DNA of 48,795 nucleotides from an uncultured archaeon (GTDB taxonomy: Archaea; Aenigmatarchaeota; Aenigmatarchaeia; QMZP01). Shown piece after piece: positions 5,341 to 12,253 of the stretch. A program made the position numbers and the translations under genes. Each line of letters opens with the position of its first letter. Within the stretch, counting starts at the first letter, position 1. Below the pieces are notes generated by a model. That model did not search any database, was not told the DNA's origin, and saw nothing but the letters and a program-made list of their open reading frames with translations. The stretch covers positions 1 to 48,795 of the forward strand of contig CAYJTA010000001.1 in assembly GCA_964372825.1 (NCBI GenBank). Reading direction: 5' to 3'.

Positions 5341-5595
5341 ATGGAAACCAAAAAGAGGCTGGAAGCAGAAACCAGGAAATGGCTTGAAAGGCTTGAAAAC
5401 GATATGCAGCTTATCAAATCCAGTAAGCTGCCTAAGCCCACAGCCGAGCAGATGGACAATGTTTATGCTTATATCGAAGACTGCCGCTACTTTCTCGGAA
5501 AGAAGGATCACATCAATTCCTTCGAGGCCATAATCTATGCCTGGGGGATATATGAAACCCTGCTGAGGCTTGGGATGATAGAAAAAGAGAAGTGA
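5341..5595 (+). CDS. small archaeal protein, DUF357-like
   Basis: 84 aa. The pattern YAYIEDCRYFLGKKDHINSFEAIIYAWGIYETLLRLGMI resembles the DUF357 consensus (Y..D...F...gD...A....YA.G.lD...rlG). Recognised from memory only. Confidence 0.5.
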   Translation: METKKRLEAETRKWLERLENDMQLIKSSKLPKPTAEQMDNVYAYIEDCRYFLGKKDHINSFEAIIYAWGIYETLLRLGMIEKEK

Positions 5596-5862
5596 GCCCG
5601 GAGGGATTCTCGCCTTGATTTATCAGTTCAGTATTTGTATTGCCTTTCTTTGGATACCTTACCCTTTCTTTTGGAAAGAAAGGGTAGCTTCGAACCCTCG
5701 ACACCCTGGTGTCACCTGCAGCCATTCATCCTTCCGTCATATGGCTCCGCACTAAGAGCCAGGTGCTCTACCAGATTGCTCTACCCTCTTCCTTTGTAAC
5801 TTTTTCTTTTCCGTGCACGCTTTTCTTTTCCTAAAAGAAAAGGGTGCCTGAGCTACGGGCCC
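5593..5862 (-). tRNA. tRNA-Lys (anticodon CTT) with three introns: D-loop about 5778-5847, anticodon loop about 5710-5751, T-loop about 5607-5688
   Basis: Minus-strand exons join to GGGCCCG-TA-GCTCAG..TCTGGTAGAGC-A-CCTGG-CTCTTA(G/A)-CCAGG-GTGTC-GAGGG-TTCGAAT-CCCTC-CGGGCTC-A. Acceptor, anticodon and T stems all pair. TATA box about 30 nt upstream and a T-rich tract downstream. Confidence 0.85.
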
Positions 5863-5887: not shown

Positions 5888-5897
5888 TATTTATACG
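5888..5897 (-). promoter_or_regulatory. TATA box for tRNA-Lys(CTT)
   Basis: Minus strand reads GTATAAATAG, centred about 30 nt upstream of the tRNA 5' end. It lies in the divergent intergenic region shared with the aIF-2 gamma gene. Confidence 0.45.
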
Positions 5898-9260: not shown

Positions 9261-9281
9261 CCTTCCAGCCATATTGTAACT

Positions 9282-9390
9282 GGGCGGCCAAAATGGGGAG
9301 GATCACCCGTTCCCGTTCCGAACACGGAAGTTAAGCTCCCCGATGGTCCAGGAAACCTGCCTAACGGCGGATAGCCTGGATAGCTGCCCA
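9282..9390 (+). rRNA. rrf: 5S rRNA (short, about 109 nt, not linked to 16S/23S within this window)
   Basis: Contains the conserved CCCGTTCCGAACACGGAAGTTAAGC block. Helix I is GGGCGGC/GCTGCCC, helix II-III is GGGGAG/CTCCCC, and helix IV-V is TCCAGG/CCTGGA. Confidence 0.85.
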
Positions 9391-9436
9391 CTTTCTATTT
9401 CCAAGTCCTATATCTTCATTTCGCGCCAAATGCAAC

Positions 9437-9479: not shown

Positions 9480-9699
9480 GCCCATGTGGTGTAGCGGTCC
9501 AGCATAGGAGCCTGTCAGCAGCCTTTCTTTTCACAAAAGAAACGCTGGCGATAGAAAACTTCGCGAAGAAGGGCCGGCAGTCCGCTCTTGACCCGGGTTC
9601 AAATCTACCCTTTCTTTCCGAAAGAAAGGGTAAGTTATCCAAAGAAAGGGAATACACATACTGAACTGGATAATTATGGTGAAAATCCCGGCGTGGGCG
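9480..9699 (+). tRNA. tRNA-Asp (anticodon GTC) with two introns: canonical 37/38 intron about 9518-9582 and T-loop intron about 9605-9686
   Basis: Exons are GCCCATG-TG-GTGTAGCGGTCCAGCAT-A-GGAGC-CTGTCA|C-GCTCT-TGAC-CCGGG-TTCAAAT|CCCGG-CGTGGGC-G. All four stems pair and the anticodon loop CTGTCAC is typical of tRNA-Asp. Confidence 0.85.
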
Positions 9700-11923: not shown

Positions 11924-12253
11924 TGAGCCCGGAGGGATTCTCGCAGCGCACATCGCTCTATCCAAAGAAAAGACAATACAAACGATGAGCTTGTTATTTA
12001 TTCTACATTTGTATTTCCTTTTCTTGGATACCCTACCCTTCTTTTTGGAAAAGAAGGGTGGTTTCGAACCCTCGACTCCCTGGTATCTTCCCCCATCTTT
12101 CTATCATTTGGCTAAAAGCCATCCATATGCTTTTAACGTGAGTTAAAAGCCAGGTGCTCTACCAGATTGCTCTACCCTCTTCCTTTGTAACTTTTTCTTT
12201 TCCGTGCACGCTTTTCTTTTCCTAAAAGAAAAGGGTGCCTGAGCTACGGGCCC
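11924..12253 (-). tRNA. tRNA-Lys (anticodon TTT) with three introns: D-loop about 12169-12238, anticodon loop about 12084-12142, T-loop about 11938-12062
   Basis: Exons are GGGCCCG-TA-GCTCAG..TCTGGTAGAGC-A-CCTGG-CTTTTAA-CCAGG-GAGTC-GAGGG-TTCGAAT-CCCTC-CGGGCTC-A. The 5' 106 nt (12148-12253) are identical to 5757-5862. Confidence 0.85.

Follow-up and report, generated by a model that had tools for sequence, protein, structure and literature searches.

tRNA genes carrying several introns were described in the Thermoproteales by Sugahara et al. (2008), as far as the review PMC4033280 recounts that work, and the published maximum stands at three introns per tRNA gene (PMC3239211, PMC4033280). The splicing endonuclease of Candidatus Micrarchaeum acidiphilum ARMAN-2, which is of the epsilon2 type, was found to cut both a 37/38 intron whose bulge–helix–bulge (BHB) motif has the hBHBh' form and a 59/60 intron of the hBH form in vitro (PMC3239211), and it accepts relaxed motifs (PMC3239211, PMC3488258). 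In the literature searched, this epsilon2 type had been reported only from ARMAN-1/-2 and Mancarchaeum as of 2018 (PMC5829648). Two further systems concern the introns themselves, i.e., the transposing tRNA introns of Thermoproteales (Fujishima et al. 2010, to the extent that PMC4033280 cites them) and the box C/D guide encoded in the intron of archaeal pre-tRNA-Trp (Clouet d'Orval et al. 2001, as summarised in PMC2584109 and PMC7994747). Here, we report a tRNA-Lys(CUU) gene at positions 5862..5593, on the minus strand, of contig CAYJTA010000001.1 (assembly GCA_964372825.1), the whole 48,795-nt stretch of which was analysed and is called the window below. With a probability of about 90%, this gene is functional in its host, a DPANN archaeon of Candidatus Aenigmatarchaeota, where it is apparently the only one for tRNA-Lys(CUU), and an epsilon2-type endonuclease cuts its three BHB introns. 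The gene belongs to the archaeal multi-intron tRNA genes, and in the literature searched such genes are undescribed for this lineage and with this endonuclease type; a dedicated paper on tRNA introns in Aenigmarchaeota was not found there, which is not proof of absence.

Structure and conservation of the tRNA-Lys(CUU) gene

The gene comprises 270 nt in four exons (15, 23, 22 and 14 nt) and three introns, of 72 nt at 15/16, 42 nt at 37/38 and 82 nt at 59/60, and its minus-strand read from 5862 to 5593 is GGGCCCGUAGCUCAG / 72 nt / UCUGGUAGAGCACCUGGCUCUUA / 42 nt / ACCAGGGUGUCGAGGGUUCGAA / 82 nt / UCCCUCCGGGCUCA. When the exons are joined, the resulting 74 nt are recognised by ARAGORN as tRNA-Lys(ctt) with a canonical cloverleaf in which every stem is paired, i.e., an acceptor stem of 7 bp (including one G–U), a D-stem of 4 bp, an anticodon stem of 5 bp and a T-stem of 5 bp, and this spliced product agrees with intron-less relatives in length and arm structure. 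CCA is not encoded at the 3' end of the gene. An earlier note, made by a model from the sequence alone, had proposed a tRNA-Lys(CTT) gene split by introns in the D-, anticodon and T-loops, with inserts of about 70, 42 and 82 nt, an intron share of about 72 percent and a fully paired cloverleaf; the four exon pieces are indeed found at that place on the minus strand, the lengths and the pairing are as given above, and the introns account for 196 of the 270 nt (72.6%). The coordinates of all features are collected in Table 1.

BHB-type motifs, whose absence the same note had named as the sign of a pseudogene, can be drawn at all three junctions, and they are rare in shuffled sequences. The junctions were analysed with a solver of our own, which lists every BHB-like candidate intron in a given stretch (4 bp of central helix between two 3-nt bulges, together with a helix on the outer or inner side) and then tests sets of removals, up to four or five per gene, for a cloverleaf. 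Applied to the 270 nt alone, the solver drew from 198 candidate introns the proposed pattern and one variant shifted by 1 nt at the D-loop (16/17). In controls that left the exons intact and shuffled the introns, 0, 9 and 11 of 2000 trials came up to the BHB scores seen at the true junctions, and a whole-gene solution of any kind appeared in 3 of 150 shuffles.

At the 15/16 junction (HBh'), the central helix H is GCUC/GAGC with 4/4 pairs, in which the intron supplies a copy of the 3' D-stem strand (GAGC) to pair with the 5' strand (GCUC); bulges AG^G and AA^U flank it, and an inner helix h' of 5 bp (ACCCU/AGGGU) follows beyond a C–A mismatch. The 37/38 motif (hBHBh') uses the anticodon stem CCUGG/CCAGG as its 5-bp outer helix h, with bulges UA^G and AC^A and an inner helix h' made of UGC/GCA and then AGCCAU/AUGGCU (3+6 bp). 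At 59/60 (hBH), the T-stem GAGGG/CCCUC provides h (5 bp) and UUCG/CGAG provides H (4/4), with bulges AA^G and AA^U. The bulges thus measure 3 nt at all three junctions. The T-loop junction is ambiguous from the sequence alone (58/59 vs. 59/60) because an A is repeated at both ends, and it is the BHB register that picks 59/60. The three BHBs are compatible with one another and with the acceptor stem in a single fold of −70.5 kcal/mol.

The exact position of the D-loop junction is given by natural intron-less alleles. A sister genome of the same genus carries syntenic Lys(CUU) and Lys(UUU) genes, both of which have the 37/38 and 59/60 introns and lack the D-loop intron, and they read GCUCAG|UCUGGUAGAGC, which is exactly the predicted 15/16 junction; intron-less D-loops in many relatives confirm it as well. 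Between these two species, the exons of both Lys genes are identical (74/74), vs. intron identities of 80% and 74% for the CUU gene and 83% and 68% for the UUU gene (Fisher p = 2e-7), which is the pattern expected if selection acts on the exons alone. Across the order, tRNA-Lys genes carry 0 (one CUU gene), 1, 2 or 3 introns at these sites, and three-intron tRNA-Lys genes occur in six further related genomes; a strict exon pattern matched the gene within the genus only, and a looser pattern was needed for the wider order. The 37/38 central helix covaries with the anticodon: among 13 Lys genes, base 34 pairs with G in 6/6 CUU genes and with A in 7/7 UUU genes. Likewise, the sequence of the 37/38 inner helices varies from genome to genome, and the pairing is always kept. 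Besides the CUU gene and its UUU paralogue, which lie 6.4 kb apart on the same 48.8-kb contig, the assembly contains no other tRNA-Lys sequence.

The TATAAATA box upstream of the gene is likely an archaeal promoter, and the sister-species orthologue has GTATAAATAG likewise upstream at a similar distance. The T5 run beyond the gene end is likely a transcription stop, and a T-rich tail also trails the sister-species orthologue. On the plus strand, an open reading frame (5341..5595 or longer) has its TGA stop at 5593-5595, on the three final bases of the tRNA gene, which runs on the minus strand.

Standard finders miss this gene. ARAGORN, with or without its intron option, called nothing at the locus, and neither did the Rfam tRNA model at the gathering threshold; a permissive scan returned a 14.9-bit partial tRNA match together with chance matches. 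Genome-wide, Rfam finds 12 tRNA genes and ARAGORN 8 to 15, without a tRNA-Lys among them, so that genome-quality scores and claims of "missing tRNA" for DPANN bins are biased by such multi-intron genes. By anchoring on the T-arm and the acceptor and then solving for introns, 24 candidates were obtained, 21 of which are clear tRNA genes. Six of the solved genes are intron-less and about half carry a 59/60 intron; at least four have three introns in this genome, i.e., Lys(CUU), Lys(UUU), Asn(GUU) and Leu(CAA). Three introns are thus routine in this genome and order, not exceptional. The earlier note had placed three introns in one gene, one of them in the T-loop, at the extreme of what is described; this stands in so far as three is the maximum in the literature, but such genes are common here, and 59/60 is a known site of the ARMAN-2 enzyme.

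No convincing gene with more than three introns was found in this genome. A four-intron solver call for a tRNA-Leu on contig C109 was rejected in favour of a three-intron Leu(CAA) with a long anticodon-loop insert, and four-intron calls on C146 and C157 were rejected as a probable false positive and a two-intron tRNA-Trp gene, respectively. The tRNA-Leu(CAA) gene (C109:1750-1371, minus strand, 380 nt) is interrupted by introns in the D- and T-loops and by ~150 nt in the anticodon loop, for which no simple BHB was found; with its two hairpin modules, this third insert may represent one intron nested in another. The tRNA-Trp(CCA) gene (C157:2555-2209, minus strand) has a D-loop intron and an anticodon-loop intron of ~190 nt.

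Processing of the precursor and rival explanations

The broad-specificity endonuclease that the earlier note supposed to be needed is encoded in the genome, and it is of the epsilon2 type. The tRNA_int_endo model has one match in the genome, in a 396-aa protein on contig C6 that contains the Pfam N-terminal and catalytic endonuclease domains. Residues 9-396 of this protein align with residues 11-387 of PDB 4FZ2 (ARMAN-2 epsilon2 EndA) with E = 4e-94. In this alignment, the catalytic residues Y236, H251 and K282 as well as the specificity-loop lysine K161 are kept (GTYK -> GVYK), which are the triad and the broad-specificity lysine named for ARMAN-2 EndA (PMC3488258). By homology, the genome's single endonuclease is of the three-unit epsilon2 type (alphaN, alpha, betaC), with predicted broad specificity, a predicted homodimeric state and predicted cleavage of relaxed BHBs. 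A scan of one genome per species returned 197 relatives of this enzyme, the nearest of which are labelled Candidatus Aenigmatarchaeota (83% identity for the closest one), followed by Micrarchaeota, and the epsilon2-type enzyme occurs throughout Aenigmatarchaeota.

Transcription, cleavage and ligation of the tRNA-Lys(CUU) precursor are what we infer from these features. A TATA-box promoter would transcribe a precursor of about 275 nt, in which each insert would fold with its flanking exon into a BHB (HBh' at 15/16, hBHBh' at 37/38, hBH at 59/60). The single three-unit epsilon2-type endonuclease would then cut both bulges of each motif, an RtcB-type ligase would join the four exons, with the introns probably being circularised, and end trimming and CCA addition would yield a 77-nt tRNA.

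Several observations weigh against this reading. The 15/16 motif has no outer helix h, and the 37/38 central helix CUCU/GGUG forms 3/4 pairs, with a U33–U mismatch and a U35–G wobble. The minimum free energy (MFE) of the precursor is −82.6 kcal/mol vs. −70.5 kcal/mol for the BHB fold, and unconstrained MFE folding of the precursor or of single-intron versions does not draw the canonical 3-nt bulges. The MFE structure of the mature sequence (−36.5 kcal/mol) is not the cloverleaf either (−32.8 kcal/mol), and the discrepancy was treated as a limit of the energy model and not counted as evidence against the structure. RtcB (PF01139) has no match in the 89.7%-complete, 162-contig assembly; since 38 of the 40 relatives searched have it, the same genus among them, its absence here was taken as an assembly gap, and a ligase-less lineage was rejected on the same ground. 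In addition, an intron-less Lys gene could lie in the 10% of the genome that is missing. As a separate observation on the ligase, RtcB lies in open reading frames of 900-1500 aa in several relatives, with the match split in pieces, as expected for inteins.

The imperfect D-loop and 37/38 motifs would also fit a gene that is spliced with not all inserts leaving at the given boundaries, e.g., with shifted sites at one of these two motifs, an obligatory order of removal or a helper factor. The 16/17 variant given by the solver, the choice of 59/60 over 58/59 by the BHB register alone and an antisense element in intron 2 that competes with BHB formation (described below) all point in this direction. 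However, the product of the D-loop junction is fixed by the intron-less alleles, the U33 mismatch recurs in four of the six CUU genes and is therefore tolerated, and relaxed motifs are known substrates of the ARMAN-2 enzyme (PMC3239211, PMC3488258); this alternative is judged unlikely.

A dead gene, i.e., a former tRNA-Lys that was invaded by repeats and is no longer processed, with the BHB motifs as leftovers, would account for the D-loop and T-loop inserts belonging to repeat families with many copies across the genome, not all of which lie in tRNA bodies, and for the silence of the standard tRNA finders. It is difficult to reconcile with the CUU gene and its UUU paralogue being the only Lys tRNA genes in the assembly, with exons that match the sister species at 74/74 positions next to diverged introns, and with stems that are all intact; BHB motifs far above chance, covariation, a conserved promoter box and the same architecture in many genomes speak against it as well. 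An assembly artefact, in which repeats were misjoined into a tRNA gene in a fragmented metagenome bin, might be suspected from the 162 contigs and the repeated nature of the inserts, but a single 48.8-kb contig holds two such genes at a distance of 6.4 kb, independent assemblies of other species repeat both the gene structure and the synteny, and each insert sits exactly at a BHB-forming site. Thus, the paralogue, the sister species, the selection pattern, the distribution across the order, the covariation and the lack of a spare copy make a pseudogene very unlikely and an artefact hardly credible at all, and a working gene spliced by the epsilon2-type endonuclease is retained as the reading of the locus.

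Intron families and a candidate methylation guide

The D-loop intron is identical in Lys(CUU) and Lys(UUU) over 72/72 nt, vs. 42% and 54% identity for the other introns of the pair. Its identity in the paralogues and its absence from the sister species indicate a recent gain, which came about either by copying from one Lys paralogue to the other or by insertion into each of them. The core of this intron consists of a pyrimidine tract, a loop and a purine tract (a hairpin module), followed by GCGUKCACGG and a second purine tract; within this genome it is found again in Leu and His genes, in their anticodon-loop introns, and across the order it returns in D-loop introns of tRNA-Lys. The intron is also 88% identical to a tRNA-Leu D-loop intron of another genus, L004 (G019:C112) 669-740. 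As orthologous introns of the sister species are 68-83% identical, this value across genera implies that the intron moved recently from lineage to lineage or that the sequence of the module is constrained. The gain of a tRNA intron is rarely caught in nature, and the D-loop intron offers a system for asking how introns move.

The T-loop intron belongs to a second family, with the hairpin ACCCUUUCUUU/AAAGAAAGGGU, which is found by BLAST at at least 20 places in the genome, at least eight of them directly after the T-loop sequence UUCRAA. One member lies in the window, in tRNA-Asp(GUC) (9480-9699, plus strand), which has introns of 65 nt at 37/38 and 82 nt at 59/60, the latter 93% identical to the Lys(CUU) T-loop intron over 69 aligned nt; this gene adjoins a 5S rRNA gene at 9280-9392. 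Other copies of the module lie 0-7 nt past apparent tRNA 3' ends (C28:146-200, C43:86-141, C89:3006-3031 and C36:2918-2983), where they start after the acceptor strand and discriminator, outside the tRNA bodies; they could represent trailers, separate tandem genes as spacers or belong to genes that are split or permuted. The Lys(UUU) T-loop intron of the sister species, L014 (G001:C23) about 370-520, measures 158 nt and contains a second hairpin module, CCUUUUCUUUU/AAAAGAAAAGG, which the 125-nt copy in the present genome lacks; the comparison suggests nested insertions within introns. The introns at 5776-5847 and 5607-5688 are built alike: a pyrimidine tract and its complementary purine tract enclose a 3-nt loop, and a short spacer then leads to a second, near-identical purine tract. 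The pyrimidine tract could therefore pair with the first or the second purine tract, or all three could stack.

Relatives of the 42-nt anticodon intron were not found elsewhere in the genome. This intron contains GGAGCCA, an antisense element that forms six Watson–Crick pairs and one G–U pair with its own tRNA and that orthologues keep as GGAGCC or UAAGAGCC. The order GGAGCCA, 1 nt, AUGA, loop, AGGAUGA is the guide, box D', box C' order of box C/D RNAs; AUGA and AGGAUGA each depart once from the box consensus (CUGA, RUGAUGA), and the fifth nucleotide upstream of AUGA pairs with C32. Shuffled introns give this guide-box layout in 0.33% of trials. Four other introns of this genome, those of Lys(UUU), Met(CAU), Leu(UAA) and Trp(CCA), show the same layout (Table 1). 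Pyrococcus box C/D guides target the wobble ribose 34 of tRNA-Met, tRNA-Leu(UAA) and tRNA-Trp, only the Trp guide being known as intronic (PMC7994747, PMC2584109), and the predicted targets of the Met, Leu(UAA) and Trp introns here are exactly this known position-34 set. In about a dozen genera, the Lys(UUU) introns have a conserved (U)UAAAAGC; NNGA comes at a distance of 1 or 3 nt, after which a hairpin, an NRU bulge of 3 nt and GA follow. The sequence of the hairpin varies, and its pairing is always kept; the NNGA/hairpin/NRU/GA layout is the sequence signature of a candidate K-turn.

The genome encodes fibrillarin and Nop5. The TrmJ-type Cm32 methyltransferase model (TIGR00050) did not reach its cut-off in any of 26 genomes of the order, 24 of which gave no match, and the match in the present genome has three in-frame stops. 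The 42-nt intron might tentatively be seen as kept because it is a minimal single-K-loop guide of the C'/D' type, acting in cis on its own precursor and directing 2'-O-methylation of C32 before splicing; the same device, with a retuned antisense element, may be present in the four other introns and in Lys introns of a dozen Aenigmatarchaeota genera. Three features count against such a guide. Each of these introns has one box pair only, so that the 42-nt intron is not classed as a canonical box C/D small RNA; natural guides are described as always bipartite or pseudo-symmetric, and specificity is lost in constructs with a single motif (PMC1635284). In Lys(CUU), the antisense element falls short of a criterion of about 8-12 nt, and both the spacing and the predicted target differ among Lys(UUU) introns, with C32 in most and U34 in three. 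For these reasons, the guide is treated as a candidate, not as a finding. Regex scans of the genome for canonical bipartite box C/D small RNAs gave nothing above shuffled controls, and a search for antisense elements in the D-loop and T-loop introns gave nothing convincing. If true, the guide would explain in functional terms why several tRNAs retain a 37/38 intron, would take intron-borne guides far beyond tRNA-Trp and would be a natural half-size guide, which in vitro work suggests is poorly specific.

Table 1. Features of the tRNA-Lys(CUU) gene, its paralogue and the candidate guide elements, with coordinates in the window
Feature	Position	Strand	Details
TATAAATA box	5888..5895	-	26-33 nt upstream of mature 5' end; read from sequence
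Exon 1	5848..5862	-	tRNA positions 1-15: 5' acceptor strand, U8 A9, 5' D-stem GCUC, A14 G15
Intron 1, 72 nt	5776..5847	-	D-loop 15/16; HBh' motif
Exon 2	5753..5775	-	tRNA positions 16-37: remainder of D-arm, 5' anticodon stem CCUGG, loop CUCUUA with anticodon CUU
Intron 2, 42 nt	5711..5752	-	canonical 37/38; hBHBh' motif
Antisense element GGAGCCA in intron 2	5742..5748	-	complementary to tRNA positions 29-35
Candidate K-loop in intron 2	5726..5740	-	box D'-like AUGA (5740-5737), short loop, box C'-like AGGAUGA (5732-5726)
Exon 3	5689..5710	-	tRNA positions 38-59: 3' anticodon stem, variable loop GUGUC, 5' T-stem GAGGG, UUCGAA
Intron 3, 82 nt	5607..5688	-	T-loop 59/60; hBH motif
Exon 4	5593..5606	-	tRNA positions 60-73: U60, 3' T-stem, 3' acceptor strand, discriminator A
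T5 run	5582..5586	-	7 nt past gene end; read from sequence
Paralogue tRNA-Lys(UUU), 330 nt	11924..12253	-	same three intron sites as the CUU gene, with 72, 59 and 125 nt
Candidate guide, Lys(UUU) intron			antisense GUUAAAAGC, pairs with 31-39 (9 nt); then 3 nt, UGGA, hairpin, AAU-GA; predicted target C32
Candidate guide, Met(CAU) intron			antisense UUAUGAGU; then G, UCGA; predicted target C34
Candidate guide, Leu(UAA) intron			antisense UCUUAAGU; then G, UUGA; predicted target U34
Candidate guide, Trp(CCA) intron			read by eye; antisense UUGGAGC; then U, UUGA; predicted target C34, as in the classic tRNA-Trp intron guide

Comparison with known systems

The candidate guide resembles the intron-encoded guide of pre-tRNA-Trp in several respects, i.e., an antisense element of a 37/38 intron beside a box D'-type motif, a fifth-nucleotide rule that leads to a ribose in the anticodon loop, and a guide pairing that is mutually exclusive with BHB folding. 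It differs in that the tRNA-Trp intron has both C/D and C'/D' motifs and the Lys intron a single candidate K-loop. Unlike tRNA-Trp, tRNA-Lys, tRNA-Met and tRNA-Leu(UAA) are not known to carry intronic guides, and the tRNA-Met guide has been stated to be "always exonic" (PMC2584109).

As for intron spread, the present family shares with the transposing introns of Thermoproteales the occurrence of similar introns in different tRNA genes and positions, which implies spread. Here, in contrast to the Thermoproteales case, presence and absence between species are combined with 72/72 identical copies in paralogues, i.e., a gain in progress, and the family has a distinct pyrimidine/purine hairpin module. 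The layout of the gene is also that of a eukaryotic nuclear tRNA gene with one intron in each of three arms; that gene depends on a eukaryotic endonuclease, and its introns are unrelated to those described here.

The multi-intron tRNA genes of Thermoproteales are similar in having up to three BHB introns per gene, non-canonical sites in the D- and T-loops, relaxed hBH/HBh' motifs and the need for a broad-specificity endonuclease. They differ in host, which here is a DPANN Aenigmatarchaeota archaeon and not a Crenarchaeota member, and in enzyme, which here is of the epsilon2 homodimer type and not (alpha-beta)2. The introns of the two Lys genes (42-125 nt) are much longer than typical Thermoproteales non-canonical introns, and they contain conserved repeat modules, which is a further difference from Thermoproteales. 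Candidatus Micrarchaeum acidiphilum ARMAN-2 shares with the present genome the architecture of the endonuclease, the 59/60 hBH site and a high fraction of interrupted tRNA genes (PMC3239211, PMC3488258). The ARMAN-2 examples have one or two short introns, e.g., 13 nt at 59/60, in contrast to the three long introns described here. With this gene, the pairing of heavily interrupted tRNA genes with an epsilon2 endonuclease is extended from ARMAN/Micrarchaeota to Aenigmatarchaeota.

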